A program made the position numbers and the translations under genes. Shown piece after piece: positions 1,290-63,499 of a DNA stretch of 64,000 bases. This DNA comes from Pseudomonadota bacterium (GTDB taxonomy: Bacteria > Pseudomonadota > Gammaproteobacteria > Pseudomonadales > JADFDG01): assembly GCA_049324495.1 (NCBI GenBank), contig JBMOOP010000058.1, forward strand, positions 65,275 to 129,274. The letters run 5' to 3'. Each line of letters begins with the position of its first letter. Within the stretch, counting starts at the first letter, position 1. The notes under the pieces are model-generated. The model was not told the origin of the DNA. It searched no databases and worked only from the letters and a program-made list of their open reading frames with translations.

Positions 1290-3185
1290 TCACTCATCGG
1301 CAGCGGCGGCAGGCGGGGCTTTGCTGTCAACCGGGGCCAGGGGCACAAAGTCGGGTTGTTTGAGCAGCCAGGCATCGGCCACTGCGCGGGCGATCGGGGC
1401 TGCGGCGGTGGATCCGTGCGCGCCATTCTCGACGAGTACCGCGATGGCAATGCGCGGGCTGTCGACCGGCGCGAAGGCGATGAACAGGGCATGGTCGCGA
1501 TGGCGTTCGGCGACTTCCGCCTCGTTGTACTTCGCACCCTGAGCAATGCCGCGCACCTGCGCCGTTCCGGTCTTACCGGCCATGGTGTATTGCAGGCCGC
1601 GGCCCATCATCGATGCCGTACCACCGGGCCGGACCACATCGGCCATCGCGTTGATCACGAGATCCCACCATTGCGGATTTTCGATCGCGATCGAGCGCCG
1701 GCGCGGTGGTGGCGGCAAACGGGAATCGTCGATTTTTTCCACGAACGTCGGCGTGACGCTGAAGCCGCGATTGGCAAGGATAGCGGTTGCCACCGCCAGC
1801 TGCAGCGGCGTCATCAGCATGTAGCCCTGACCGATCACGACACTGATGGTTTCGCCGCCATACCAGGGTTGCTTGAGCGCTTTTCGTTTCCATTCCGGCG
1901 AGGGCAGCACGCCGGGCAGCTCGTTGGGCACGTCGATGCCGGTGCGGCTGCCAAGCCCGAAGCCACCCAGAAAGCCCGCCATTTTATCGATGCCCATGCG
2001 GTGTCCGACCGTATAGAAGAATGTGTCGCAGGATTGCACCACGGCCTTGTGCACGTCGACCATGCCATGCCCGCCTTTTTTCCAGTCGCGGTACTGGTGT
2101 GAATCGCCCGGCAGGCGGAAGAAACCCGGGTCGGAAATCGTGAACGTTGGCGTAACGGTGCCGTAGTGCAGTGCGGCCAGCGCCACCATCGGCTTCACGG
2201 TTGAGCCCGGCGGGTACTGGCCCTGGATTGCGCGGTTGTAAAGCGGACGATCCGGGTGCTCGGCATAGTAACGATAATCGCTACCGGAAATGCCGGTGAC
2301 GAACAGGTTCGGGTCGAAGGCAGGTGTTGATGCAAACGCGAGAATGCCGCCGGTGAGCGGGTCGAGTGCAATCACGGCGCCACGGCGGCCGGCCATGCCG
2401 TCGTACGCTGCCTTCTGCGTGTCGAAATCAAGGTAGAGGCCGAGGTTGCTGCCCGGTTGCGGGTCGATGCGGTCGAGGACGCGCATGATGCGACCATAGG
2501 CGTTGGTTTCCACTTGCTGGTAGCCGACGCGGCCATGCAGCACCGATTCGTACTGACGTTCGACGCCGGTGCGGCCGACGTAGTTGGTGCCGTCGTAGTT
2601 CACCGGATCGAGGAGGTCGAGATCATCTTCGTTGATGCGGTTCACATAACCCAGGCCATGCGCCAGCGTCTCGGTCCAGGGGTAGTAGCGCACCAGTTCG
2701 GTTTCGATACGCACGCCGGGCAAGCGATGACGATTGACGGCAATGATGGCCAGTTCTTCGTCGGTGAGGCGGCCGTGCAGTGGCAGGCTTTCAAGCGGGC
2801 GCGTGCCGTGCGCAATGCGCTCGCGGAAGCGGTTTACTTCCTCAGGAGACAGTTTGAGCAGTGCCTGCAAGGTGTTGATCAATGCCGGCAGGTCGGTCGT
2901 CTGCTCCTTGACGATGTTCAGCGAGAAGCTGGGGCGGTTTTCTGCCAGCACCTTGCCGTTGCGGTCGAGAATCAGGCCGCGGTTGGGGGCGATGGGCGAT
3001 GTCTGGATGCGGTTCTCGTCGGAGATTGTCGAGTAGTGTTCGTAGCGCAGTACCTGCAGATAGAAAGCACGGGCAACGAGGCCGAACAGCAAGACACCCG
3101 CGATCACACTCATCACACCAACGCGCGAACCGTGCAGGCGTATTTCGCGCTGATTATCCTTGAGTTGGGTCGTGGGGCGGGCCAT
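1290..3185 (-). CDS. mrdA: Penicillin-binding protein 2 (elongasome transpeptidase)
   Basis: ORF 1290..3275, with the start moved to ATG 3185 (MARPTTQLKDNQREIRL) because the upstream codons overlap rlmH. It has an N-terminal TM anchor plus SxxK (STVK) and KTG (KTGTA) motifs. Confidence 0.93.
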   Translation of the reverse strand: MARPTTQLKDNQREIRLHGSRVGVMSVIAGVLLFGLVARAFYLQVLRYEHYSTISDENRIQTSPIAPNRGLILDRNGKVLAENRPSFSLNIVKEQTTDLPALINTLQALLKLSPEEVNRFRERIAHGTRPLESLPLHGRLTDEELAIIAVNRHRLPGVRIETELVRYYPWTETLAHGLGYVNRINEDDLDLLDPVNYDGTNYVGRTGVERQYESVLHGRVGYQQVETNAYGRIMRVLDRIDPQPGSNLGLYLDFDTQKAAYDGMAGRRGAVIALDPLTGGILAFASTPAFDPNLFVTGISGSDYRYYAEHPDRPLYNRAIQGQYPPGSTVKPMVALAALHYGTVTPTFTISDPGFFRLPGDSHQYRDWKKGGHGMVDVHKAVVQSCDTFFYTVGHRMGIDKMAGFLGGFGLGSRTGIDVPNELPGVLPSPEWKRKALKQPWYGGETISVVIGQGYMLMTPLQLAVATAILANRGFSVTPTFVEKIDDSRLPPPPRRRSIAIENPQWWDLVINAMADVVRPGGTASMMGRGLQYTMAGKTGTAQVRGIAQGAKYNEAEVAERHRDHALFIAFAPVDSPRIAIAVLVENGAHGSTAAAPIARAVADAWLLKQPDFVPLAPVDSKAPPAAAADE

Positions 3186-3213
3186 GCGTCGGCGCTGTCC
3201 AGGTGGGCGAAAA

Positions 3214-3681
3214 TCAGCGGTGGTAGGGGTGGCCGCGCAGCAGCGACCAGCAGCGATAGACTTGCTCGGCGACAACGATACGTACCAGCGGATGCGGCAG
3301 GGTCAGTGGCGACAGCGACCAGCGTTCCTGCGCGCGTGCCAGGGCGCAATCGGCGAGGCCGTCGGGGCCGCCGACCAGCAGGGCGATGTCCCGCCCTTCC
3401 GGCAGCGTGCGGCGCAATTCCCCGGCCAGACTTGCGGTGCTATGGGCCTTGCCGCATACGTCGAGGGCCACGACGCGATCGTCGCTGCGCAATACGGCCA
3501 GCATGCGTTCGCCCTCGGCTTCCTTCACCCGCGCCAGATCGCTGGTTTTCATGCGTTTGCCGGCGGAAATTTCCACCAGCTCGAGGCGAATATCATCCGC
3601 CAGGCGCTTTGCATACTCAGCGAATCCTTCGTTGACCCAGCCGGGCATGCGCTCGCCGACGGCGACGAGTCGCAGTTTCAT
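3214..3681 (-). CDS. rlmH: 23S rRNA (pseudouridine1915-N3)-methyltransferase RlmH
   Basis: 155-aa SPOUT-family ORF (MKLRLVAVGERMPGWVNEGFAEYAKRL...). It sits in the conserved rsfS-rlmH-mrdA position. Confidence 0.93.
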   Translation of the reverse strand: MKLRLVAVGERMPGWVNEGFAEYAKRLADDIRLELVEISAGKRMKTSDLARVKEAEGERMLAVLRSDDRVVALDVCGKAHSTASLAGELRRTLPEGRDIALLVGGPDGLADCALARAQERWSLSPLTLPHPLVRIVVAEQVYRCWSLLRGHPYHR

Positions 3682-3694
3682 GCGTGCAGAGCCT

Positions 3695-4069
3695 TCACGA
3701 TTCGTTACCGTGCCGTTCCCCGCCGAGGCGATCGGCAGCGGCCCGCGGGCCGACCGACCACAGGCGTTCGAGGTCGTAATACTGCCGTGTGGCCGGCGTC
3801 ATCACGTGGACGATAACGTCGCCGATATCGACCAGCACCCAGTCGGTCTGGGCATCGCCTTCGATGCCCAGCGGCCGCACGCCGGCTTCTTTGACGCGCT
3901 CGATGACGCGGTCGGCGATCGATTTCACATGGCGGGACGAAGTACCGCTGGCGATCACGATCCGATCAGCAATGCTGGTCATCCCGCCCACGTCCAGTGT
4001 CACGATGTTCTGCGCCTTGATGTCTTCAAGGGCGGCTTTCACCAGGGTGGCAAGTTGATCGGCATTCAT
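3695..4069 (-). CDS. rsfS: Ribosome silencing factor RsfS (iojap family)
   Basis: 124-aa ORF with typical RsfS sequence ([40 protein letters not shown]...[14 protein letters not shown]). Confidence 0.93.
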
Positions 4070-4105
4070 TCGGGTCGTGTCGCTCCGTATGCGGGATTCG
4101 GGTGG

Positions 4106-4789
4106 TTACTGCGGTCGGTAAAGGGCGTGGTGTTCGATGTAGGCACACACCGTGGCGGGGACGCCGTTGGGGTGCCGTCCTGCCGCGAAGGCCGCGCGAA
4201 TGGCCGTTGATGCCATGTTAGCAGCGGTCGTGGCCTCGATCAGTATGCGGCCGCCCGGGCTGCTGCGCAGCGCCTCGGGGTCGCCCGTAAGGTGTGCGGC
4301 CAACTCGCCGAGCTCGCGCGCGGTCGGCATGCCCTGGCCGGGGCGGGTGCAGGCGACGAGATGAGCCTGCGCGAGGATGTCCTGCCAGCGCCGCCAACGG
4401 GTGAACTGACGCAGCGAGTCCATGCCCAGCACCAGCACGATGGGCGTACCGGCCGGCAATTCGCTGCGCAGCTCCCCGATTGTATCGATGGTCCAGCTCG
4501 GGCCGTCGCGCGCTAACTCACGGGTGTCGATGGCGAAACCGCGTTCGTGGGCGATGGCGATCCGCAGCATGGCCAGCCGGTGCAGCCCGGAGGCCTGCGG
4601 GTCGTCGCGATGTACCGGATTGCCGGCGGGCAGGAAGTGAACGGTTGTACCAAGGAGCGCGCGGACCGCACGCGCAACGGCGAGATGGCCGTCGTGCACG
4701 GGATTGAAACTGCCGCCGAACACGACATGCGGCCCGCGTGCCGCCAAGCCATCCACGGCTGCTTGTTTTTCAGCAGCGATTTGTTTCAC
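4106..4789 (-). CDS. nadD: Nicotinate-nucleotide adenylyltransferase NadD
   Basis: C-terminal 228 codons of ORF 4106..5293, containing [12 protein letters not shown] (the (H/T)xGH nucleotidyltransferase motif). GTG 4789 overlaps the proA stop (GTGA). The upstream part of the ORF is antisense to proA and was discarded. Confidence 0.88.
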
Positions 4790-6054
4790 GAACGGACGTG
4801 CCCGTCGCCGAGCACAATGTATTTCTGGCAGGTGAGTCCTTCGAGGCCGACCGGTCCGCGCGCGTGGAACTTGTCGGTAGAGATGCCGATCTCGGCGCCG
4901 AGGCCATACTCGAAGCCATCGGCAAAACGCGTGGACGCATTCACCATCACCGAACTTGAGTCCACTTCGGTGAGGAATCGACGCGCCAGGGTGTAATCCT
5001 CGGTAACGATGCTGTCGGTGTGGTGCGAACCGTACTGGCCGATGTGCGTGATTGCCGCGTCGATGGAGTCGACGACCTTTATCGCAAGAATCGGCGCGAG
5101 GTATTCGGTCGTCCAGTCTTCTTCGGTGGCTGCTTGCACCTGCGCACCGAGAATGGCGCGGGTGCGTTCGCAACCGCGCAGCTCCACCTGCGCCTGGTCG
5201 TAGCGTATTTTCAGGCGTGGCAGGATCAGTGCGGCAACGTCGGCGTGCACCAGCAGCGTTTCCATCGCGTTGCAGACACCGTAACGGTGGCACTTGGCAT
5301 TGACGGCGATGCGTTCGGCTTTGTCGGGATCGGCGCGCGCATCAATGTAGACGTGGCAATTGCCATCGAGGTGCTTGATGACAGGCACTTTCGCTTCGGC
5401 GCTGACGCGTTCGATCAGGCTCTTGCCGCCGCGCGGGATGATCACGTCCACATACTCGGGCATCGCCACCAGCATGCCGACCGCTGCGCGGTCGGTGGTA
5501 TCGACGACCTGCACTACCTCTTTGGGCAGCCCGGCCTGCGCGAGGCCCGCGCGAATGCAGGCAGCGAGTGCGCGGTTGCTGTGAATCGATTCGGAGCCGC
5601 CGCGCAGGATTGTCGCGTTGCCGGATTTGAGGCACAGGCTCGCCGCCTCAATCGTCACGTTCGGGCGCGATTCGTAAATCATGCCGACGACGCCCAACGG
5701 CACGCGCATACGGCCCACCTGGATGCCGCTGGGCCGATAGCACAGCCCGGTGATCTCCCCGATCAGGTCGGGCAGGCCCGCCACCTGGGCGAGGCCTTCG
5801 AGCATGCCGTCGATGCGGGCGTCGGTCAGCCTGAGGCGATCGACCATGGCGTCGTCGAGCCCGGCGGCGCGACCGGCCGCCACGTCCTGCGCATTGGCGG
5901 CGAGGATCTCGGTGCGGGCCGCACGGATGGCGTCGGCAGTGGCAGCCAGCGCCGCGTTCTTTGCGGCCGTTGGTGCCCGGGCGGCCTCGCGGGCGGCGCG
6001 GCGGGCGGCAATGCCAAGGGCGGTCATGTAGGACCGGATGTCCTGGACTGTCAT
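4786..6054 (-). CDS. proA: Gamma-glutamyl phosphate reductase ProA
   Basis: 422-aa aldehyde-dehydrogenase-fold ORF with ProA-type sequence along its full length ([24 protein letters not shown]..., [15 protein letters not shown]). Confidence 0.95.
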
Positions 6055-7786: not shown

Positions 7787-9073
7787 ATGAAGCATTGCTA
7801 CGCCCATTCCGACCAGGCGATTGACCTGTATCGTGCCTGGCTGGCAGGCGATCCGCCCTGGCAACTCGACCGCTTTCTTGCCCAGGCCATGAAGGAAGAT
7901 CGGCGTCTGGGCCGCCGTGACCGGCAGGCCCTTTCCGAGGCGGTGTTTGCCGTCACCCGTTTTGCATCCCTCGCTCGCGCCGTGCTGACGCTGGCTGCGC
8001 GCGGTGCGCTGCCGGACGATTGCGCCGATTTGCCGGCGTTGCGTGAGTTGCCGCTCGATCGCACGCTGGCGATCGTCATTGCGCGCTACGGGCGCGAAGC
8101 GTGGCCGTTGCGCGGCATCGACAAATACTCGCTGGGCGAAAAACTTGGGTTGGCGTTTTCGGAAATTGCAGCGCGTGCCGAACACGAATTGCCGTATTTC
8201 CTCGCCTGGCATGGCATTGATCCGGCATGGGAGCCGGTGTTGCGTGCCCGCGCCATCGCCAGCGGCTGGGATGAGGCGGTATTGCGTGAGTTCGTGGCGC
8301 AGCAGGACACGCGGCCGCCCATGTGGCTACGCCTCAATCGACCGGAGAAGCGTGAGCAGGTGCTCAACGAGTTGTCGGTTGATTACGACGTCGATTACGA
8401 AGGCGATGCGCTGGCGGTGATCGGGCCGCGCGGCATATACGATCTCAAGTGCTGGCAGGAAGGCGATATCGAAATCCAGGATTTCGCCAGCCAGCAGGTA
8501 GGCCAGGCAATGGCGCCGAAACCGGGCGAAACCCTGTGGGATGCCTGTGCCGGCGGTGGCGGCAAGACGCTGCAGCTTGCGGCGCTGATGAAAGGCCGCG
8601 GCGCGGTACATGCATCTGACATTCGCGTGAAAATGCTTGATGAAGTGGCGCGCCGGGCGAAACGTGCCGGCTTCCACAACGTGCGCACGTTTGCCTGGCA
8701 AGGCGAGGTGCCGCCGGAGCTGCCGCGCGAAACACAAAAGCGCGGCGGCTACGATGCGGTACTCGTTGATGCGCCCTGTACGGCAAGCGGTACCTGGCGG
8801 CGCAACCCGGATGCGCGTTACCGCTACGCGAGTCTGGGCGATCGCTCGCTGTTGGCGCTGCAACTGCGCCTGTTATCGGTTGCTGCGCAGGTGGTGCGGC
8901 CGGGTGGCCGGCTGGTTTATGGCACGTGCAGCATCCGTGTCGAGGAGAACGAAGATGTTGTGGCGGGTTTTCTGGCTGCGCACCCGGGCTTCACGCGGGT
9001 GCGCCAGGGTATCCACGGCTGCCCGCAGCGTGATGCCGATGCGATGTTCGTGGCGTTGATGACGCGCAGCTGA
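7787..9073 (+). CDS. RsmB/NOL1/NOP2/Sun-family RNA m5C methyltransferase
   Basis: SAM-binding block DACAGGGGKT, catalytic blocks DAPCTASGTWRRNPD and YGTCS, and a NusB-like N-terminal region. The start could be GTG 7748 or ATG 7787. Confidence 0.85.
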   Translation: MKHCYAHSDQAIDLYRAWLAGDPPWQLDRFLAQAMKEDRRLGRRDRQALSEAVFAVTRFASLARAVLTLAARGALPDDCADLPALRELPLDRTLAIVIARYGREAWPLRGIDKYSLGEKLGLAFSEIAARAEHELPYFLAWHGIDPAWEPVLRARAIASGWDEAVLREFVAQQDTRPPMWLRLNRPEKREQVLNELSVDYDVDYEGDALAVIGPRGIYDLKCWQEGDIEIQDFASQQVGQAMAPKPGETLWDACAGGGGKTLQLAALMKGRGAVHASDIRVKMLDEVARRAKRAGFHNVRTFAWQGEVPPELPRETQKRGGYDAVLVDAPCTASGTWRRNPDARYRYASLGDRSLLALQLRLLSVAAQVVRPGGRLVYGTCSIRVEENEDVVAGFLAAHPGFTRVRQGIHGCPQRDADAMFVALMTRS

Positions 9074-9946
9074 TCAGCTGCGCGCTGCGAGTATCCGCAC
9101 AAACGAGTCGCCGCGTGTTTCCGGTATTGCCAGCTGGCCATAGTAATGGCGTGGATTGTGTGCGGTGGCCTGCCGGAAACCGAGTGCATGGAAGTGCGCC
9201 TCCATTTCTTCGTCGCTGCTGAAATGAAAACTGACGTTGCTGCGCGAGGCGGCACCCAGCGTATCGCCGAGTACTTTCAGCAGCAGCCGGAAAGGATGGC
9301 GATTGAGTAGAGGGTAGTTGTCCATCAGATAAATGCCGGCCGGGAATTTTTCCAGCGCACTGTGCAATCTTCCCCAAAAGCCGCTGATCGTTTCAAGGTT
9401 GAAATAATTCACCAGCCCTTCGGTTACCACCAGTAACGGTTTCGTCGTATCAAATTCGCGTGCGATCACATTTTCGAGGCTTTCCGGCCCTTCGACGAGA
9501 ATGTTGCATGTCACCACTTTGTGGCGTGTCGAGAGTGCATTCGCTTCGCGCAGCAGCTCTTTTTTCCGGCGCGCCATGTCGGGCAGGTCGGCTTCGACGT
9601 ATTTCAACTGCGGGAAGCGTTCCGTGAAGCGCCAGCCGCGTGGCGAAAGCCCGCAAGCGATCTCCAGTATCTGGGTGACGCCATCGTGGGTGATCGCCTC
9701 TTCAATGAGATGGTCGATGAGGAAATGGCGCTGTAGCAGGAAGTCCTTGATGTTGCCGCCGACGAGTTGTCGGCCGATGGCTTCGAACGGCCACAGCAGC
9801 GCGAAGTACAGCTCGCCCTGGCGGGTACGGAATGGCGGCGCTGACAGGCCGTTGTGGTACCAGATGTAACCGGTGTAATGCGCGGTGAAGCTGATGCTCG
9901 ACGTATCGGTCTTGTCTTTGCGCAAGAAATTGCGGAACAGGCCCAT
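9074..9946 (-). CDS. Class I SAM-dependent methyltransferase (leucine-carboxyl-MTase-like)
   Basis: ORF 9074..9973 with the start taken at ATG 9946 (MGLFRNFL). It has the motif-I-like block ILEIACGLSPRG followed by YVEADLPDM. Confidence 0.7.
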   Translation of the reverse strand: MGLFRNFLRKDKTDTSSISFTAHYTGYIWYHNGLSAPPFRTRQGELYFALLWPFEAIGRQLVGGNIKDFLLQRHFLIDHLIEEAITHDGVTQILEIACGLSPRGWRFTERFPQLKYVEADLPDMARRKKELLREANALSTRHKVVTCNILVEGPESLENVIAREFDTTKPLLVVTEGLVNYFNLETISGFWGRLHSALEKFPAGIYLMDNYPLLNRHPFRLLLKVLGDTLGAASRSNVSFHFSSDEEMEAHFHALGFRQATAHNPRHYYGQLAIPETRGDSFVRILAARS

Positions 9947-10670: not shown

Positions 10671-11705
10671 TCAAACGATCTCCCTGCCGGTGCCCGGCAG
10701 GGCCTTCCTGCCGGCAATCCGCAGCAGCAGCGTGGTCATCGCGTCCCATGCCGAGCCGGGCGCTTGCCCCTTGTTGGTTTTTTCGATTTTTGCACAATCG
10801 GCGAGCAGGGCGCGCAGCGCAGGAACGCGCAGGCGTTTGAGTGCCGGTGCCAGTACCTGCTGGCGATTGCCCCAGACGCCGGCGGCTTGCAGTGCCGACT
10901 GTTCGCTGCGACCTGCAGCAATCTGTTCGGCGGCGAGCAGCAGCCAGCGCACGTCGCGTTGCACCAGCCAGAGCAGCGGCACGGTTGATTCACCTTCTTC
11001 GCGCAATCCGGCGAGCATGCGCAGCGCGCGCACTGCATCGCCGGCGAGCGCGGCATCGACGACACCCTGCATCTCATAGCGCGCATTGTCGGCGATGACG
11101 GCGGCGAGTGCGGCGGCGTCAAGCTTGCCCCTGCCGAACAACAGCGCAATGCGGTCGACTTCCTGTCGGGCGGCCAGCAGGTTGCCTTCGACGCGGTCGG
11201 CGAGTAATTCCAGCGCGGCCGGATCGGCCTCCACGCCCTGTGCGGCAAGCCGCTTGCGGAGCCAGGGTGACAGATGTGCGCGTTCGACGGGCCATACCTG
11301 CACGATGGCGCCGGCCTGGTCGATGGCGCCAACCCAGGGTGCCGAGAGTTGTTTCTTGTCCAGGGCGCCGGCCGTGATCAGCAGTGCGGTGTCGTCGCCG
11401 GCCCGTGTGCACCAATCGGTGATTGCCTGCTGGCCGTCGCTCGACGGTACGCGATCAAGACGCAGTTCAATTAGGCGGCGGTCGCCGAACAGCGACATGC
11501 TGCCGGCGGCCTGACGCAACCGGTTCCAGTCGAAACTGCCTTCGACATGGAACACTTCGCGCTCGCTGCAGCCGGCACGCTGCGCCGCTGCACGGATGCG
11601 GTCGGCAGCTTCGAGTGCGAGCAGCGGCTCTTCGCCGCAGACGAGCCATGCCGGCAGCAGTTTGCCGGTGAGTTGGGCGTCAAGTTGCTCAGGGCGCAGG
11701 CGCAT
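10671..11705 (-). CDS. holA: DNA polymerase III delta subunit HolA
   Basis: ATG 11705 (MRLRPEQLDAQLTGKLLPAWLVCGEEPLLALEAADRIR...) overlaps the lptE stop. The lptE-holA order is conserved. Confidence 0.9.
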   Translation of the reverse strand: MRLRPEQLDAQLTGKLLPAWLVCGEEPLLALEAADRIRAAAQRAGCSEREVFHVEGSFDWNRLRQAAGSMSLFGDRRLIELRLDRVPSSDGQQAITDWCTRAGDDTALLITAGALDKKQLSAPWVGAIDQAGAIVQVWPVERAHLSPWLRKRLAAQGVEADPAALELLADRVEGNLLAARQEVDRIALLFGRGKLDAAALAAVIADNARYEMQGVVDAALAGDAVRALRMLAGLREEGESTVPLLWLVQRDVRWLLLAAEQIAAGRSEQSALQAAGVWGNRQQVLAPALKRLRVPALRALLADCAKIEKTNKGQAPGSAWDAMTTLLLRIAGRKALPGTGREIV

Positions 11706-12258
11706 CGGTGGCGGCCGGCAGCACTGCCGCTCGATGATTGAGGCTGCGCCGGTATTGGCGAATGATTTGCCCGACAGCATCACGGCGCAGATCGCGGTAC
11801 AGCATCGCTTCTTCCTCGGCTGAGCCCATTGCCGCGTCTTCATGATAGCGATAGCTGCGGTCGATTTTGATGGTGGTGGCCGGCACCAGCGCGCTGCCGT
11901 CGGCCGCGCTGATGCGAAACTCGAGCGCGTAATCGATCTGGTATTCGGCGGCGCTGGCATTGGCGGCGATGCTGGCGATGCTGCGGCGCAGAGTTTCGTT
12001 CAGCAACTCCACGGTGGCGGGCGCGCCGTCGGTAACGACGAAGCCGTTGCCGGTAAAGGCCGTGACGGTGGTGCGCTGCAGGCCGTCATGGCCGTCAGAC
12101 TCCCAGGCGCTGTCCGAGGCTTTACTGATGTCGCGTACATTCACAACGCGCATCTCGTCGGCGATCTCGATTTTCCCGCGCAGATGGAAACCGCAACCGA
12201 CGAGCAGGAAGGCGGTGACCAGGGCGAGGGTTGATTCGAGGGTGAGAACGCGGCGCAT
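11689..12258 (-). CDS. lptE: LPS-assembly lipoprotein LptE
   Basis: 189-aa ORF with a lipobox (LLVGC, followed by GFHLRG), immediately downstream of leuS as in most proteobacteria. Confidence 0.9.
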   Translation of the reverse strand: MRRVLTLESTLALVTAFLLVGCGFHLRGKIEIADEMRVVNVRDISKASDSAWESDGHDGLQRTTVTAFTGNGFVVTDGAPATVELLNETLRRSIASIAANASAAEYQIDYALEFRISAADGSALVPATTIKIDRSYRYHEDAAMGSAEEEAMLYRDLRRDAVGQIIRQYRRSLNHRAAVLPAATDAPAP

Positions 12259-32544: not shown

Positions 32545-34245
32545 ATGAAAATTTCCCGTCAGGCTTATGCCGACATGTTCGGCCCCAACACCGGAGACAA
32601 GGTGCGCCTGGCCGATACCAGTCTGTGGATTGAAGTGGAGCGCGACCACACGATCTACGGCGAAGAAGTGAAATTCGGCGGCGGCAAAGTCATTCGTGAC
32701 GGCATGGGCCAGTCGCAGCAGGTGGCGGCATACGTTGTGGACACCGTCATCACCAACGCGCTGATTGTGGATTGGTGGGGCATCGTCAAGGCCGACATCG
32801 GCATCAAGAACGGCCGTATCGCCGGCATCGGCAAGGCCGGCAATCCGGATATCCAGCCGGGTGTGAGTATCGTGATCGGCGCGGCGACGGAAGTGATTGC
32901 CGGTGAAGGCATGATCATCACTGCCGGCGGCATTGATGCGCACATTCATTTTATTTGCCCGCAGCAAATCGACGAAGCACTGTATTCCGGCATCACCACC
33001 ATGCTCGGTGGCGGCACCGGGCCGGCTACCGGCACCAACGCCACCACCTGCACGCCGGGGCCCTGGCACATCGCGCAAATGCTGCGTGCCGCCGAGGCAT
33101 TTGCGATGAATCTCGGTTTCACTGGCAAGGGCAATGCCAGTTTGCCTGCAGCACTGCGCGAGCAGGTGAGTGCCGGCGCCATCGGCCTGAAGTTGCACGA
33201 GGATTGGGGCACGACGCCAGCGGCGATCGACTGCTGCCTTGGTGTTGCCGACGAGATGGACGTGCAGGTGGCGATCCACACCGACACACTGAACGAATGC
33301 GGGTTTGTCGACGATACGATTGGGGCGTTCAGGGGCCGCACTATTCACACCTATCACACTGAGGGTGCCGGTGGCGGCCACGCTCCGGATATCATCAAGA
33401 TGTGCGGCGAAGCGAATGTGTTGCCAAGTTCCACCAACCCGACGCGGCCATTTACGGTAAATACAATCGACGAACATCTCGACATGCTGATGGTGTGCCA
33501 CCACCTTGATCCGTCAATTGCCGAGGATGTGGCATTTGCCGAGTCGAGAATTCGTCGCGAAACGATAGCGGCAGAAGATATTCTGCACGATCTGGGTGCT
33601 TTCTCCATGATCTCCTCGGACAGCCAGGCCATGGGGCGGGTTGGCGAAGTGATTCTGCGCTGCTGGCAGACGGCAGACAAAATGAAACAACAGCGCGGGC
33701 AACTGCCCGAAGATTCCGCCGGCAACGACAATTTTCGGGTGAAGCGATACATCGCCAAGTACACCATCAATCCAGCGCTGACTCACGGCATTGCTCACGA
33801 AGTCGGTTCGATTGAAGTGGACAAGCTGGCCGATCTGGTGTTGTGGAGACCGGCATTTTTTGGCGTGAAACCGAGCCTGATTGTAAAGGGCGGCTTGATC
33901 GCCGGCGCGTTGATGGGCGATCCGAATGCATCGATCCCGACGCCACAGCCGGTGCACTACCGGCCGATGTTCGGTGCCCATGGTGGCGCGCTGGCGGTAT
34001 CGGCAGTGACTTTTGTCTCGCAGGCCGCGCTTGCCAATGACATTGGCGGGCAACTGGGTTTGCGCAAGCGTCTGGTAGCTGTCAAGGGTTGCCGCAGCAT
34101 TGGCAAGAAGGACATGAAACTCAACGCTGCCACGCCGCGTATCACTGTCGATCCGCAAGACTACCGGGTACACGCCGATGGCAAGTTGCTGTGGTGTGAA
34201 CCGGCAAACGTCTTGCCGCTGGCGCAACGCTATTTCCTCTTTTGA
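32545..34245 (+). CDS. ureC: Urease subunit alpha UreC
   Basis: 566 aa. It contains [14 protein letters not shown], the carbamylated-Lys region [11 protein letters not shown], and MVCHHLD. Confidence 0.97.
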
Positions 34246-50549: not shown

Positions 50550-50632
50550 CCAGGCTCTCTCTGCCGGAATTCCATCTTGTTGATTTTTTTAAGGGATTTC
50601 ATCACGAGAAATGCTGGTTACCCCCGCAATTC
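50550..50632 (+). repeat. Copy 1 of an ~83-nt intergenic repeat
   Basis: The 26-nt core CTGCCGGAATTCCATCTTGTTGATTT (50561-50586) matches 63331-63356 at 25 of 26 positions. The blocks CCAGGC, AAGGGATT and GTTACCCCCG are shared in the same order and orientation. Confidence 0.8.
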
Positions 50633-58409: not shown

Positions 58410-59471
58410 TCAGGCGCCTGGTCTGGCCTCCTGTTCCGGTGCCGGGTTCTGGTTGGTGGTACCGTCCGCGGAAGTGAACGGACCGACTTGCAGCAGCCAT
58501 TCGGAGTCGTGGCTGCCTTTGAGGTGGCGCTGGCGATCGAACAATAACTGGCGGCTGAGTGCCGCCTGGCGTGATCGGGCCAGCGCCGCGAACAGCGCGG
58601 CGGATGCCGTGTTGTCCAGGGTCACGGTGGTTTCGAGCTGGCACACATGCGCGCAGGCGTCGCGCGCGAGCAGGTTGTCGAGCATGCGTTGTGCAAGCCC
58701 GCGTCCCCGCTGGCTGGGGTGCACGGCAACCTGCCAGATAAACAGGGTGTTGTTGCGATTCGGCAACAGGTACCCGGATATGAAGCCCACGACCTGGTTG
58801 CCGCTCGTGGCGACCACGCAGGTGTCACGGAAGTGGGTGCACTGCAGCAGGTTTGCGTACAGCGAGTTCTGGTCCAGCGGCGGGCAGATGCGGATCAGCG
58901 CATGGACATGTGTTCCGTCATCAACCGTTGGCGCACGCAACTGGACATCATTGTCGGCGGCGCTTGTGGTGTTGATCGGAACCGGCGAGCGGCGCGGGAA
59001 TTGTTCAGGAATATTGCCGAGGGTGAGCATCGGCGCCGCATCAATGTCGCCGGCCCCCATCATCGTGGCTACATGCTGCAGGGAATCCACGATCCGGTCG
59101 CGTTGAGCCGGGGTCAGTTGCTCGAACCGGGCCTGGAAGTCTGCCTGCAGAGGCGTCGGCGAACCTTCCAGTAATCGGCTTCCTGCTTCCGTGAGCGCCA
59201 CGTTGACCACGCGTTTGTCCTGGCTGCCACGGCTGCGGACGACGAGCTCACGCTCTTCCAGGCGGTCAAGGATGGTGGTGACGGTGGCCTGCGAAAGGCT
59301 GACCTGACTGGTCAGGAACCCCAAGGTGGCGCCCGGGTGCGCCGCGATAGCACGCATCAGTACGCTTTGGGGAATGGTCAGCCCGGCGGTGCGGCTGAGG
59401 CGCTTCGAGTTCTGGTCGGTGGCCCGGATGATCCGTCGCAGGGCCACCAGCACTTGGTCCTGGTGGGGCAT
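58410..59471 (-). CDS. ectA: In-frame fusion of a MarR-family (EctR-like) regulator and diaminobutyrate acetyltransferase EctA
   Basis: aa 1-136 form a MarR wHTH domain ([18 protein letters not shown]...[17 protein letters not shown]). aa ~176-335 match EctA ([30 protein letters not shown]...[17 protein letters not shown]...). There is no stop codon or frame change between the two parts. Confidence 0.85.
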
Positions 59472-59954
59472 GGGGGAAGACCTTATGTTTCGAGGTCGAC
59501 ATAATCCCCAACTAATAGTTCGATGTCAAAGTATATGCCTGCTCAGAGCGGCCGGCTGTGGGCCGCGAGCAAGGGAGACGCATTTATGGGGGGCTTTGCC
59601 TGCCATGTTCAAGGATCCCCAGAAGGCAGCACGAGACCTTCTGTCCACCGATGCCTGCGGCCTCACGCCGCGCCCACCGTCGTCGATGCAGATCGCGCCC
59701 GCAAATTGCCGGCAGAAATACTGGTCTTGTACCGGATCAAAGGGCAGCTTCGTACAGCAGCGGAACTCGCCGGCGGTACACATGGCATTGCGACGATCAC
59801 GACATCCTCCTGGCCAACCGTAGCGAGTTGGAGCAATCCGGCAGTCGTGCACTGGCGGTGAAACTGCTGCCCAGGCTCGTCGACCAGCCAATGGCCAGCT
59901 ACAGTGGTGCGCGGATGGCGGTCGAGGCCGGGGAGGACGATCTACGTGGGCGAG

Positions 59955-60563
59955 ATGCAGCAAGCGGGCGCGGCAGGCAATGACCTGTTGCGAGACAACG
60001 CGTTTCTCGGAGCGCTGCGCGCGCAGATGGTGCGTTTTGCGACGCTCCAGTTGAATGACCGCAACCTCGCCGAGGACGCCGTGCAGGACGCACTCGCTGC
60101 CGCGCTGCGCAATGCGGGTTCGTTTGCAGGACGCTCCGCGTTGAAAACCTGGGTATTCGCCATCCTCAAGAACAAGATCATCGATGTCATCCGCCAGCGC
60201 AGCCGCATCGTCTACACGGGCAGCCTGATCGGGGAGGACGAGGACGGGGATTCCACGCCGGCTCTTTTTGATCAGCGCGGGCACTGGAAGCCCGAGGAGA
60301 AGCCGGCGGACTGGGGTGTGCCCGATCTCGCGCTGCACGACGAGCAATTCTGGCGCGTGTTCGAGACCTGCCTCGATGGCCTGCCGGCGCGTCAGGGGCG
60401 CGTGTTCATGATGCGTGAGTTCGTGGGGCTGGAGGCTGATGAGATCTGCACGGCGGCCGGGATATCGACGAGCAATCTGCACGTACTGCTGCATCGTGCG
60501 CGCCTGCGCTTGCGTGAGTGCCTGGAAAACAAGTGGTTCGACGGGGGGTGTGAAACATGCTGA
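59955..60563 (+). CDS. ECF-type sigma-70 family sigma factor
   Basis: ATG 59955. Region 2 (DAVQDALAAALRNAGSFAGRSALKTWVFAILKNKIID) and region 4 (LPARQGRVFMMREFVGLEADEICTAAGISTSNLHVLLHRARLRLR) are both present. Confidence 0.88.
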   Translation: MQQAGAAGNDLLRDNAFLGALRAQMVRFATLQLNDRNLAEDAVQDALAAALRNAGSFAGRSALKTWVFAILKNKIIDVIRQRSRIVYTGSLIGEDEDGDSTPALFDQRGHWKPEEKPADWGVPDLALHDEQFWRVFETCLDGLPARQGRVFMMREFVGLEADEICTAAGISTSNLHVLLHRARLRLRECLENKWFDGGCETC

Positions 60564-60760
60564 GCTGCGAAGAGGCAACCCGCTTCATGTCGGATGCCAT
60601 GGAGAGGCCGCTTACCGTCAGGGATCGCCTGTCGCTCAATGTGCACCTGGTGATGTGCAAGGGCTGCCGGACTTTCAGTCACCAGGTGCAGGGTTTGCGC
60701 CAGATAGCGCGCGAATACGCGCAGGGTCGCGGCGATCCGAAGGACGACGGGTCAGCCTGA
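60557..60760 (+). CDS. Small zf-HC2 (ZAS) anti-sigma factor, no TM segment
   Basis: 67 aa, overlapping the sigma gene stop by 7 nt. It has the HxxxCxxC motif (HLVMCKGC). Confidence 0.75.
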   Translation: MLSCEEATRFMSDAMERPLTVRDRLSLNVHLVMCKGCRTFSHQVQGLRQIAREYAQGRGDPKDDGSA

Positions 60761-61366
60761 GCGTCCTGCCGCCCGCGCCAGCCACCAGTCCGCGCTCACG
60801 TAGCGCCCGCCACCGATAAAAAACAGCGCCAGCAGCATCACGAAGTAGGTCGCGGCGAACTCGATGCCGTTGTTCAGCACGACAAAATTGCCGCTGCTGG
60901 TCAGCCAGTCGTAGTTGCCGTGCTCCTGCAGAATCTCTTTCGCGCGGTCGAGTTTCTCCACCGCTTCGAGCACGCGCTCGTTCGCAAACGGTGCGCCCGG
61001 ATCGGCGATGGCCTGCCAGCCGTTCTCCAGGTGCACGGCCGTCGCTGCGACCAACATCGTCACCATCAGCGGAATCGCGATCCAGCGCGTGGCCAGCCCG
61101 AGCGCCAGCAGCACGGCACCGACGAGCTCGGTGGACGTGGCGAGGAACGCCATCAGCCAGGGAAACGGCAGGCCGAGGCCCCAGTCCGGGTTGCCGAACC
61201 AGGCCACGGTACTTTCGAAGTCGGCGAGCTTGTGGGTGCCGGCCATCCAGAGCACCGGCACGAGGAACAGGCGCAGCGCCAGCGGCGCCAGGCCGTCGAG
61301 ATGGCGCAGCGGGCGCATGACGGCGTCGTGGATGCGGAAATACAAAGTGGTGGCGCGCTGGAACAT
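60752..61366 (-). CDS. DoxX-family inner-membrane protein (long form)
   Basis: ATG 61366 after GGAGA. It has DoxX-type helices (LRLFLVPVLWMAGTHK..., STELVGAVLLALGLATRW) plus a soluble insert ...GNYDWLTSSGNFVVLNNGIEF. It is divergent from the EGKCG peptide gene. Confidence 0.85.
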   Translation of the reverse strand: MFQRATTLYFRIHDAVMRPLRHLDGLAPLALRLFLVPVLWMAGTHKLADFESTVAWFGNPDWGLGLPFPWLMAFLATSTELVGAVLLALGLATRWIAIPLMVTMLVAATAVHLENGWQAIADPGAPFANERVLEAVEKLDRAKEILQEHGNYDWLTSSGNFVVLNNGIEFAATYFVMLLALFFIGGGRYVSADWWLARAAGRSG

Positions 61367-61528
61367 GGGTTGTCTCCGGTAGGTGTTCCGACTTGGACGG
61401 ACCAGCAGCGTATGGCTTACAGTCGTGCCTGCGAAAGTTCTCGTGGGTCTGTGTGTAAGAAATCGCAGTCAGCCCCGTCCAATCCCCGGAACCGCCACGG
61501 TGGCGGTCGTTACCCAAGGAGATTTCCC

Positions 61529-61897
61529 ATGCGTCCGATTTCCCGTCTCTCGTCCCTCGCCGGTGCGTCCGTCGTAGCTGCCCTGGCCCTGCCGATGGCG
61601 GCCCACGCCGCGAGCAACCCGTTCCATGCCGTCGACATCGCCGGCTACCAGGTCGCCGAAGCGGATGCTGCCAAGCCGGAAGGCAAGTGCGGTGAAGGCA
61701 AGTGCGGCGCGAAGAAGAAGGCTGAGCAGGAAGCCAAGACAGCCGAAGGCAAGTGCGGCGAAGGCAAGTGCGGTGGCGACAAGGCCGCCGAAGGCAAAGC
61801 CGCCGAAGGCAAGTGCGGCGCGAAGAAGAAGGCTGAGCAGGAAGCCAAGGCAGCCGAAGGTAAGTGCGGCGAAGGCAAGTGCGGCGGCAAGAAGTGA
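61529..61897 (+). CDS. Secreted EGKCG-repeat peptide; putative MNIO-type copper-binding RiPP precursor (HvfA/bufferin-like)
   Basis: ATG 61529 after AAGGA. The signal peptide ends AHA/AS, then NPFHAVDIAGYQVAEA, then seven EGKCG motifs in a Lys/Glu/Ala-rich 72-aa tail. Total length is 122 aa. Confidence 0.85.
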   Translation: MRPISRLSSLAGASVVAALALPMAAHAASNPFHAVDIAGYQVAEADAAKPEGKCGEGKCGAKKKAEQEAKTAEGKCGEGKCGGDKAAEGKAAEGKCGAKKKAEQEAKAAEGKCGEGKCGGKK

Positions 61898-61924
61898 TCG
61901 GCAACGGTTGAGGAGGGGTTCACC

Positions 61925-62057
61925 ATGTCGGGGGTTTCGGGTGCCGGGCTTGGCCAGCGCCGCGATGGACGATCTGGCGACCCTTCCGTCGCCGCTCGTC
62001 GCGCCCGATTTCCTCGATGTGGCGCCGGAGAACGGGATCGGCAGCTGCAGTTCGTAA
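61925..62057 (+). pseudogene. Frameshifted 5' stub of a DUF692/MNIO-type maturase gene
   Basis: A strong RBS (GAGGAGGGG) and ATG 61925 lie 28 nt after the peptide stop. MSGVSGAGLGQRR is read in one frame, then AMDDLATLPSPLVAPDFLDVAPENGIG in the +1 frame, ending at TAA 62055-62057. This resembles the DUF692 N-terminus (GLGLR...EvapENw). No further homologous sequence follows before csoR. Confidence 0.5.
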
Positions 62058-62130
62058 ATGCCGAGCTGGCAGAGGCCGATTGCGCGCTGCTGAGGGCAAC
62101 GCCGGCCGCCGTCAGGGAATCCTTGGCGGC

Positions 62131-62412
62131 TCACAGGTACTTGGTGATCTCCTTGAGCTCTTCGAGCGAATCCCGCTTGCCTTTGCGGGCGGCCTCGATG
62201 GTGTGCTCCAGGCAATGATCGATATGGTCCTGGATCAGCGTCCGCTTGGCCTGGCAGACCGCCTTTTCGACGGCGTGCAGCTGCTGCGCGATCTCCGTAC
62301 AGGAACGCGCTGCCTCGATCATGGTGACGATGCTGTCGATGTGCCCGCGTGCGCGCTTCAGTCGCTTCGCGATGTCGGTATGACTTTCATGCAGGTGTGG
62401 GTGGTCAGTCAT
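62131..62412 (-). CDS. CsoR/RcnR/FrmR-family metal-sensing repressor (CsoR-type C-H-C fingerprint)
   Basis: 93 aa. C38, H63 and C67 are spaced 25 and 4 residues apart, like the Cu(I) ligands C36/H61/C65 of CsoR. The N-terminus is His-rich (HPHLHESH). Confidence 0.85.
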   Translation of the reverse strand: MTDHPHLHESHTDIAKRLKRARGHIDSIVTMIEAARSCTEIAQQLHAVEKAVCQAKRTLIQDHIDHCLEHTIEAARKGKRDSLEELKEITKYL

Positions 62413-62435: not shown

Positions 62436-62891
62436 TCAGGCGGGTGGTGCAAACCACAGCACGGCACCGGCCAGGAACAGGTAACGGCCACCCTTGGCCA
62501 GCGTGACGACGAGCAGGAAGCGCCACAAAGGTTCGCGCATGACGCCGGCGATCACCGTCAGCGCATCACCGCCCAGCGGCAGCCAGCTCAGCAGCAAGGA
62601 CCAGTGGCCCCAGCGCGCGTAGGTGGCCTGGCCGCGTGCCAGTTGCGCCGGCGAGGCGGGGAACCAGCGCCGCTCCTTGTAGCGCTCGACGTAGCGTCCG
62701 AGCCACCAGTTCACCACCGCACCCAGCACGTTACCGGCGGTGGCCACCAGCAGCAGGGTGGCAAGCGGTTGTTGTCCGGCGAGCAACAGGCCGGTGAGCA
62801 CGGCTTCCGACTGCAGTGGCAACAGCGTGGCTGCACCGAAGGCAATGGCGAACAACCCTGCGTAAGCCGACAGATCCCACATCAAATGCAC
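62436..62891 (-). CDS. YqaA/DedA-superfamily membrane protein
   Basis: 151 aa with YqaA-type sequence (AFGAATLLPLQSEAVLTGLL...GNVLGAVVNWWLGRY...). It lies 23 nt upstream of the csoR-like gene and is co-oriented with it. Confidence 0.82.
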   Translation of the reverse strand: MHLMWDLSAYAGLFAIAFGAATLLPLQSEAVLTGLLLAGQQPLATLLLVATAGNVLGAVVNWWLGRYVERYKERRWFPASPAQLARGQATYARWGHWSLLLSWLPLGGDALTVIAGVMREPLWRFLLVVTLAKGGRYLFLAGAVLWFAPPA

Positions 62892-63241
62892 CGGAGGCTT
62901 GCTCCCCGCGGAGCGGGGCCGTTATGTTGCTGATTTTATCCTCCCGGGGGGGATATGGTCAAAGCGCCTCCGGCCACTTAATTCGGTTCATGCACCCACC
63001 AGAACTTCCCTTTGCGATTCATATCAGCTCCTCCACATTAGCGCTGTCTCACTATCCCCCCCCTTTCAGAAACGCGCTCCAAGTTGCTTCTTGGGCAGCT
63101 TGCCGGCCAGATTGCGCGGCAATTCGCCAAACTCTACATGCCGCGGCAATTTAAAACAGAAATCCCGGTTACACAGAATTCTGCACACCCTCCCTTCGGA
63201 ACGCAGCGGAATGGGCCGGAATGAACTGGAACGCCAGAAAC

Positions 63242-63264
63242 AAAAAACGCGGCCGAAGCCGCGT
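63242..63264 (-). terminator. Rho-independent terminator (minus strand)
   Basis: The minus strand reads ACGCGGC-TTCG-GCCGCGT followed by TTTTTTG. It lies downstream of parE and repeat copy 2. Confidence 0.75.
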
Positions 63265-63317
63265 ATTTGCTGGAGATTCCGAACCAAAATGGACTGATTC
63301 GGAAGACGTACTGGTGG

Positions 63318-63400
63318 CCAGGCCCCCTCCCTGCCGGAATTCCATCCTGTTGATTTATAAGGGATTCCGCCGCAAAAAATGGGGTGTTACCCCCGGATTC
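63318..63400 (+). repeat. Copy 2 of the ~83-nt intergenic repeat
   Basis: See copy 1. The core is CTGCCGGAATTCCATCCTGTTGATTT at 63331-63356. Confidence 0.8.
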
Positions 63401-63499
63401 GTCCCGGATTTTTCTCGCTGCAAACAGGATCCTCGGTGTGAGTGCGAAAGCCCCTGTTTCGCTCACAACTTGTTGCAACTCCAGTTGCGGATTCGAACG

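Follow-up and report, generated by a model that had tools for sequence, protein, structure and literature searches.

A probable pseudogene remnant of the maturase gene hvfB next to an intact hvfA precursor gene

We analysed a 64-kb stretch of the contig JBMOOP010000058.1, hereafter the window, in which an hvf locus carries the precursor gene hvfA followed by a short frameshifted open reading frame (ORF), here called the stub, at the place of the maturase gene hvfB. All coordinates are window positions unless a contig is named, and L-numbers denote the contigs and loci of relatives that were compared with the window. HvfB is a multinuclear non-haem iron oxidase (MNIO, DUF692) that modifies the cysteines of HvfA together with HvfC (DUF2063), and both proteins are required (PMC11252979; 10.64898/2026.07.17.739211). 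In the window, genes for a sigma factor, an anti-sigma factor and a DoxX membrane protein lie upstream of hvfA, and a csoR-like and a DedA gene follow the stub (Table 1).

Table 1. Features of the hvf locus in the window and their alignment to the intact locus of L089 (RBS, ribosome-binding site; ECF, extracytoplasmic function)
Feature	Window position	Strand	Basis or remark
ECF-type sigma factor gene, 205 codons, intact	59946-60563	+	Pfam Sigma70_r2/r4_2; NCBIfam PRK12544, 302.8 bits
zf-HC2 anti-sigma factor gene, 67 codons, intact	60557-60760	+	Pfam zf-HC2; NCBIfam antisigmaE, 70.9 bits
DoxX/HvfX-family membrane protein gene, 204 codons, intact	60752-61366	-	divergent from hvfA; Pfam DoxX; NCBIfam HvfX
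hvfA upstream block TGTAAGAAA	61454-61462	+	
hvfA upstream block CCGTCCAAT	61475-61483	+	
hvfA upstream palindrome ACCGCCACGGTGGCGGT	61491-61507	+	
hvfA RBS AAGGAG	61516-61521	+	
hvfA precursor gene, 122 codons, intact	61529-61897	+	NCBIfam KCGExKCG_twice, HvfA model
Former hvfB RBS GAGGAGGGG	61910-61918	+	identical in intact L001 and L089-L096
hvfB remnant A (MNIO maturase gene, codons 1-41)	61925-62042	+	alignment to L001 and to L089 8001-8123
Deletion junction 1, clean	62042/62043		340 bp of hvfB gone (L089 8124-8463)
hvfB remnant B, internal scrap, ~codons 155-171 (LQFVNAELAEADCALL)	62043-62092	+	out of frame with remnant A
Deletion junction 2, 13-nt microhomology TTGCGCGCTGCTG	62080-62092		1,137 bp gone
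Ordinary spacer between hvfC stop and csoR stop of intact relatives	62093-62130		L089 9651-9688
csoR-like metal-sensing repressor gene, 93 codons, convergent, intact	62131-62412	-	Pfam Trns_repr_metal, 75.2 bits
DedA/VTT-domain membrane protein gene, 148 codons as called in relatives	62436-62882	-	Pfam VTT_dom
Aligned block, L089 6029-8123	59893-62042		finishes at hvfB nt 123
Aligned block, L089 8464-8513	62043-62092		92% identical; hvfB nt 464-513
Aligned block, L089 9638-10544	62080-62988		begins 13 nt past the hvfC stop

The locus was compared with relatives that carry a complete cluster. L001, a gammaproteobacterial metagenome-assembled genome (MAG) found by scanning species-representative genomes with the DoxX protein, has the gene order of the window with intact hvfA, hvfB (285 amino acids) and hvfC (256 amino acids). 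A protein search yielded P0001, which is 93% identical to the L001 HvfB and led to the contigs L089-L096; these are much nearer to the window, with ~96% identity in the left and 95-96% in the right flank. Together with L099, a further contig with the intact allele from the JGI/ENA metagenome collection, all of them have an intact hvfA-hvfB-hvfC at the syntenic site. The HvfB and HvfC proteins of L089 score 422 and 286 bits, respectively, and both exceed the NCBIfam equivalog cutoffs; in the L089 group, the convergent csoR gene lies 63 nt after hvfC.

The stub lies straight after hvfA and is collinear in nucleotides with the intact hvfB of L001 and L089-L096, which indicates descent from this gene. 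Its first part, remnant A, aligns nucleotide by nucleotide with the first 123 nt of hvfB in L001 and L089; against L001, the exceptions are a 5-bp gap and the change of one Trp codon. The hvfA stop codon (TGA, 61895-61897) is followed by the former hvfB RBS and an ATG at 61925, from which frame 1 reads MSGVSGAGLGQRR; the +1 frame goes on with AMDDLATLPSPLVAPDFLDVAPENGIGSCSS and reaches a stop at 62055-62057. The intact HvfB of L001 begins with MSGISGAGLGLRRTLMDDLAAVPSPLVAPDFLEVAPENWIG. Between 61963 and 61964, 5 bp are deleted that read ACATT in all relatives; this deletion is private to the window and lies outside any homopolymer. Furthermore, a T to G change at 62034 turns Trp39 into Gly (TGG to GGG, 62034-62036).

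Searches at the protein level agree with the nucleotide alignment. The L001 HvfB matched the window by tblastn over residues 1-41 (E=2e-11). After repair of the frame, the 45 amino acids of the stub matched positions 1-35 of the NCBIfam HvfB model (NF003818; E=9.8e-5, 22 bits, cutoff 360) and scored 11.3 bits against Pfam PF05114 (MbnB_TglH_ChrH; E=0.21, cutoff 25), and a fragment of 41 codons is indeed expected to fall far under these cutoffs for a full-length domain. The unrepaired window frames gave no Pfam or NCBIfam match to HvfB or PF05114. Judged from these comparisons, the likeness of remnant A to HvfB is far beyond chance. An earlier note on this DNA, made from the letters alone, had proposed a strong RBS and ATG behind the precursor stop, a frameshifted DUF692 remnant and a Gly in place of the Trp of an ENW motif, all of which we recovered. 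It had also named a lack of profile similarity between the stub and DUF692 N-termini as a refutation, and had asked for an assembly or homopolymer error at the indel to be excluded; the HvfB model does match, so that this refutation failed, and the gap is not homopolymeric. The frameshift that it placed near 61968 exists, but it is caused by the 5-bp deletion at 61963/61964.

Downstream of remnant A, the alignment to L089 revealed two deletions. The 340 bp missing at junction 1 are not a multiple of three, so that the frame shifts and runs into the stop at 62055-62057. The piece that follows, remnant B, was matched by tblastn at residues 157-171 of HvfB with 80% identity. At junction 2, the microhomology corresponds to two imperfect direct repeats of 13 nt in L089, TTGCGATCTGCTG at 8501-8513 and TTGCGTGCTGCTG at 9638-9650. 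The combined loss comprises hvfB codons 42-154 and 172-285 and the entire hvfC. With these codons deleted and the 5-bp frameshift added, no uninterrupted frame with a metal-binding core is left: the HGLSLS segment that is conserved in the relatives (~residues 62-67 of the L089 HvfB), and which we take to be a metal ligand site, falls in the deleted part. The cluster has neither an adjacent functional MNIO gene nor an HvfC partner, and tblastn with the L001 HvfB and HvfC found no other MNIO or HvfC gene in the 64-kb window.

The alignment to close relatives, which the earlier note had suggested for mapping the deletion endpoints, thereby placed both junctions on L089. That note had described a single deletion junction beside a convergent csoR-like gene ending at 62131, with intact precursor and DoxX genes and without any further hvfB or DUF2063 sequence. 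The end of the csoR-like gene was seen as described, the integrity of hvfA and DoxX was borne out by alignment with the intact orthologous loci, and hvfC is lost. A deletion junction is indeed present, but there are two of them, and a scrap of hvfB persists as remnant B.

A first mapping on L001 had given a loss of ~5 kb and a membrane-protein scrap at 62082-62130. This was superseded by the closer L089, on which the loss amounts to 340 and 1,137 bp; the extra 5 kb is a difference between L001 and the pair of L089 and the window, and is older than the deletion event. L001 carries ~5 kb of additional genes between hvfC and csoR (1728-5778), which L089 lacks (9626-9688). Read from their translations only, they are methyltransferase-like, DsrE-like, hydrolase-like, an ArsR-rhodanese and a membrane protein. 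The 63-nt spacer between hvfC and csoR in L089 and the window resembles scraps of the 3' end of this membrane-protein gene. This suggests that the 5 kb of the L001 type was lost earlier, in the ancestor that the two sister lineages share.

The same truncated allele was found in other samples. A CsoR protein without any difference from that of the window is encoded on 14 short metagenome contigs, and the eight that we compared (L081-L088) come from eight samples, namely JGI 3300003313 and seven Logan runs. Across the junction region, their identity to the window is 97-98%. Both junctions and the Trp to Gly change are present in all eight and the 5-bp deletion in none; L081 has a 1-bp deletion of its own in the GGGGG run after the ATG, and the 45-codon ORF is open and called as a gene in seven of the eight. 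Over csoR and DedA, identity is 98.6-100% among the nine stub-bearing sequences and 94.8-96.5% between these and the intact-allele sequences; the latter are 97.9-99.6% identical among themselves, and L001 stands at 87%. Full-length hvfB was found only in a sister lineage, and hvfB is truncated in all stub-lineage sequences found. Because the stub sequences cluster apart from the intact alleles and share both junctions, the deletion arose once, between the split of the sister lineages and the diversification of the stub lineage. No allele carrying just one of these deletions turned up, and the CsoR-based metagenome scan yielded one close locus, L099, with the intact allele. Exact look-ups of the window DoxX, HvfA and anti-sigma proteins returned nothing, only CsoR being recorded, and the exact junction pattern had no match in a metagenome contig collection that evidently lacks L081, itself a JGI contig. 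Sequences of both lineages come from runs whose accession series are identical or adjacent.

This distribution bears on whether the stub could be an artefact, that is, a collapsed or chimeric assembly of a genome that in truth has a full hvfB-hvfC. The 5-bp deletion is present in the window alone, and the window flanks have further strain-specific breakpoints (59556-59893 and past 62994), as might be expected from a faulty assembly. However, the same two exact junctions recur in eight independently assembled contigs from eight samples, they lie outside repeats that would collapse, and the lineage-specific substitutions are consistent among the contigs; even the private 5-bp gap is not of the homopolymeric kind. 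An assembly or sequencing artefact is thus extremely improbable.

Among the nine stub-lineage sequences, we counted segregating sites along the locus. The stub has 12 in 211 columns and two independent indels in addition, compared to 0 in 282 columns for csoR, 12 in 447 for DedA and one in 57 for the 3' end of hvfA with the spacer behind it. The difference between the stub and csoR plus DedA is significant (Fisher p=0.0025). No other segment of the locus is as polymorphic as the stub, which is what one would expect of a pseudogene. Between the window and L082, there are five substitutions in the stub, and the four that lie in remnant A are all non-synonymous in the hvfB frame. Replacements in remnant A reach the conserved PDFLEVAPENW segment. 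The ratio of non-synonymous to synonymous substitution rates (dN/dS) against L089 is ~0.5 for the stub and 0.07-0.45 for the retained genes; as the stub offers few sites, this value is only suggestive of relaxed constraint.

The same polymorphism argues against a new role of the stub. The ~45-codon frame might have been co-opted as a small protein or regulatory ORF, for example by means of its retained strong RBS; both its RBS and its ATG show perfect conservation, and the 45-codon ORF is open in seven of the nine sequences. Yet two independent frameshifts occurred among these nine, the density of segregating sites is the highest in the locus with replacements at most of the variable codons, and in the window the frame stays open for 97 codons and reaches into the csoR antisense strand, so that the product is not conserved. 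Co-option is therefore very unlikely.

We thus conclude, on the basis of sequence comparison, that the stub is very probably a non-functional pseudogene remnant of hvfB, the maturase gene of the neighbouring HvfA precursor. The ancestral order would have been sigma factor, anti-sigma factor, DoxX (reverse), hvfA, hvfB, hvfC and csoR (reverse), the order that the sister genomes retain. Two deletions would have affected it, one of 340 bp within hvfB and one of 1,137 bp between the imperfect 13-nt direct repeats, and junction 2 may have formed via slippage or illegitimate recombination at the microhomology. The remnant would then have drifted neutrally and thereby accumulated the shared Trp39Gly, the 5-bp frameshift of the window, the 1-bp frameshift of L081 and the changes at conserved motif positions. 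Because HvfB and HvfC are both required according to published work and are both deleted here, the locus would no longer be able to modify HvfA in cis.

Three limits apply to this interpretation. The 5-bp deletion of the window could be an error in a single assembly; the conclusion would hold all the same, since the frame is broken by the 340-bp deletion in any case. Remnant B comprises 50 nt only, and its homology rests on 92% identity and its collinear position. Finally, the polarity of the events is deduced from the comparison of alleles; because two pieces of hvfB persist in the correct order, the arrangement is hard to read other than as a deletion here instead of an insertion in the relatives. 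We found nothing that contradicts the pseudogene interpretation. For annotation, this means that 61925-62130 would be labelled as an hvfB pseudogene remnant and that the 97-codon ORF at 61925-62218 would not be called as a gene.

The precursor next to the stub has the features of its family. A Sec-type signal peptide (AHA/AS as its cleavage site) was recognised by inspection, and HvfA also contains the conserved segment NPFHAVDIAGYQVA and EGKCG motifs with seven cysteines in total. NCBIfam assigns it to the HvfA family of MNIO-modified RiPP metallophores. It scores 55.6 bits against the KCGExKCG_twice domain model (NF050137, cutoff 19.5), as a precursor of the hvf/oxazolin (Buf_EGKCG) cluster does, and 76.1 bits against the HvfA equivalog model, under the cutoff of 95. 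Residues 1-43 are completely identical to the L001 HvfA, and the dN/dS of hvfA against L089 is 0.13. L083, which likewise belongs to the stub lineage, also has an intact hvfA, with 108 codons, six cysteines and in-frame repeat changes compared to the window. A search with the HvfA leader returned two proteins only, too few to widen the hvfA sample for a selection test.

Within hvfA, 61690-61880 contains an internal duplication in which AKKKAEQEAK[T/A]AEGKCGEGKCGG is present twice. This was seen in a comparison of the window, L083, L089, L090 and L001. The length of HvfA differs among close strains, with values of 101, 108, 120, 122 and 134 amino acids and with the frame always kept, and the hvfA repeats are the break point of most short-read contigs. 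Upstream of the gene, the conserved blocks are kept in the window, L083, L089, L091 and L001 as well as in the paralogous clusters L007 and L097, and ACCGCCACGGTGGCGGT forms a perfect 17-nt palindrome directly ahead of the hvfA RBS. These blocks could be an ECF-type promoter (GTAAG-N16-CGTC) together with an operator or a hairpin in the 5' untranslated region. Scans for promoters, terminators, Rfam families and tRNA genes gave nothing relevant at the hvf locus, and no sigma-70 promoter or terminator was predicted there.

The genes on both sides of hvfA and the stub are retained. The sigma factor is 92% identical to its L089 ortholog at the amino acid level (dN/dS 0.13); its start was set by alignment with L089, and the mechanical ORF begins with a GTG at 59904. 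The anti-sigma factor has the same length as its L089 ortholog (dN/dS 0.45). The DoxX protein is 93% identical to that of L089 (dN/dS 0.19) and scores 246.7 bits against the HvfX model (NF050144, cutoff 80), consistent with the DoxX component of an hvf cluster. The csoR product exceeds the cutoff of the CsoR/RcnR domain (PF02583, cutoff 22.8), and its gene has a dN/dS of 0.14 against L089. By inspection, it has Cys38, His63 and Cys67 with a 25/4 spacing, presumably the Cu(I) ligand pattern of CsoR, so that copper specificity is only putative. DedA is 99% identical to its L089 ortholog (dN/dS 0.07).

DoxX proteins that are 60-76% identical to the window HvfX were found without hvfB or hvfC in their flanks at 26 of 72 assessable species-representative loci (L001-L080). 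The NCBIfam name 'Cu-binding RiPP maturation protein' thus overstates the linkage of this family to hvf genes.

Further observations concern the surroundings of the locus, some of which differ between strains. At 62989-63311, the window has 323 bp of lower G+C content that are specific to it and that replace a HupE/UreJ-like gene and two small genes present in L089 (10545-12068), L001 and the stub-bearing L082. Around 63066-63150, the translated minus strand of this segment resembles an AMP-binding enzyme at its C-terminal tail (KLPRHVEFGELPRNLAGKLPKKQLGARF, ending in a stop); Pfam gave no match for this tail or for the scraps at 59523-59980. An intergenic element of ~170 bp is repeated at 63312-63482, with a partial second copy at 50557-50626 (80% identity); L001 has two copies (2417-2586 and 11474-11638) and L089 has one (12069-12233). 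The copy at 63312-63482 adjoins a ParE/ParD pair (63500 to beyond 63999). On the other side of the locus, L089 and L032 have a ParE/ParD pair between the MarR-GNAT gene of the ectoine region and the sigma factor gene. The window has 337 bp in its place (59556-59893), which hold a frameshifted scrap (59653-59835) that derives from a 159-codon gene intact in L001 (10245-10724). The MarR-GNAT gene itself (58410-59471, minus strand) is one 353-codon ORF that joins a MarR domain and a GNAT acetyltransferase domain. A gene of 353-354 codons is likewise called in L089 and L090, and the L089 ortholog adjoins aminotransferase and ectoine-synthase genes; this ORF may be a fused or over-extended EctR/EctA frame. 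The sole Rfam match in the window is 5_ureB_sRNA at 32691-32977 on the minus strand (123.7 bits, gathering score 40), and the tRNA scan of the 64 kb yielded no genes.

The loss of the maturase leaves the question of what becomes of HvfA, for which we weighed three outcomes roughly, with decay ranking first, maturation in trans second and function of the unmodified peptide last. Decay of the locus, in which hvfA has outlived its use and would eventually disappear while DoxX and the sigma/anti-sigma pair are kept for reasons of their own, is plausible but far from assured. Losses have occurred repeatedly nearby in the window strain, where HupE and two genes were reduced to the 323 bp of debris, the ParDE pair is absent and the frameshifted scrap at 59653-59835 remains. 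As an HvfX-type DoxX so often stands alone (26 of the 72 assessable loci), its retention is no evidence for a function of hvfA. At the indel rate of the stub (two events in nine lineages over 173 nt), it is unsurprising by our own estimate (P ~0.4) that the 369 nt of hvfA are intact in two lineages. Against decay stand hvfA itself, its upstream blocks and its RBS, which are intact and almost invariant within the lineage, and the single segregating site in the 57 nt of the hvfA 3' end and spacer compared to 12 in 211 for the stub.

A paralogous HvfB/HvfC pair, encoded at another place in the genome, might instead mature the orphaned HvfA in trans, an outcome that we consider possible but less likely than not. 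The L001 MAG has a second complete hvf cluster (L007), the precursor of which shares an NPF...IAGYQ(L/V)A segment and the EGKCGEGKCG core, and a cluster of the L007 type (L097) comes from a run in the accession series that also yielded several stub contigs. Among complete genomes with Buf_EGKCG precursors, only 67 of 2,583 have no MNIO gene (PMC12452194), and even short pieces of HvfA are modified by HvfB (PMC11252979). Both full-length sequences of the stub lineage have an intact hvfA, with in-frame repeat changes only; two intact copies are, however, too few to demonstrate selection. The 64-kb window is itself devoid of MNIO and HvfC genes, and the protein clusters of the L007-type HvfB list no NCBI member beyond the L007 MAG, so that a second cluster may be missing from the sequenced sister-lineage MAGs. 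None of the relatives of the L007-type HvfB that were looked up could be linked to the stub lineage.

HvfA could also function unmodified, as a periplasmic thiol-based binder of Cu(I). Modified HvfA binds ~6-7 Cu(I), compared to ~2-3 for unmodified HvfA (PMC11252979), and the window HvfA has seven cysteines that could serve in this way. Apart from the lower capacity without the modification, the state of the thiols speaks against such a function: unmodified HvfA as isolated is ~8 Da light and dithiothreitol (DTT) restores its mass, which fits four disulfides (PMC11252979), and a Cys-rich peptide exported by Sec would likely be oxidised in the periplasm. We consider this outcome unlikely.

It is conceivable, but on balance doubtful, that hvfA was kept under selection after the loss of its maturase, either through HvfB/HvfC acting in trans or as a useful unmodified thiol peptide. 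If this were true, the deleted and intact sister lineages would amount to a natural knock-out pair, from which one could learn what a copper-binding peptide gains through MNIO modification. In any case, the pair of sister lineages offers a concrete setting in which maturation in trans or unmodified function can be tested.

When comparing the locus to known systems, we find the closest likeness in the hvf (oxazolin) operon of nontypeable Haemophilus influenzae, which comprises HvfX, HvfA, HvfB and HvfC (PMC11252979). A preprint re-assigned the product groups of the modification as 5-thiooxazoles (10.64898/2026.07.17.739211). Shared features are the Sec signal peptide, the (A)EGKCGEGKCG repeats and the adjacency of DoxX/HvfX, and the intact HvfB and HvfC of the sister genomes pass the NCBIfam equivalog cutoffs. 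Unlike in H. influenzae, the window keeps only hvfB codons 1-41 and a 16-codon scrap, without hvfC; its DoxX gene is divergent from hvfA and not in the same operon, and ECF sigma/anti-sigma and csoR-like genes flank the cluster.

Bufferin and Buf_EGKCG/oxazolin clusters have a core set of precursor, MNIO, DUF2063 and DoxX (PMC12452194; PMC11626156). The sigma/anti-sigma genes of the survey belong to Buf1 clusters, whereas the window locus is of the EGKCG type. Stand-alone precursor genes have been reported in the survey of MNIO clusters, where modification in trans or none was proposed (PMC12452194), and such surveys, which list many precursors without a linked maturase, leave open how these arise and whether they become modified. 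In contrast to these stand-alone precursors, the unlinked state in the window is visibly born of deletion, with its scars and an intact sister allele known, and it shows one route, namely the deletion of hvfB-hvfC from a complete cluster. The course of this decay, with a short imperfect direct repeat and later small indels and excess substitutions, corresponds to generic pseudogene formation by microhomology-mediated deletion and does not differ from it in kind, the interest lying solely in the gene affected. The locus is thus a decayed member of the known hvf/oxazolin (Buf_EGKCG) cluster type and otherwise a case of ordinary gene decay.

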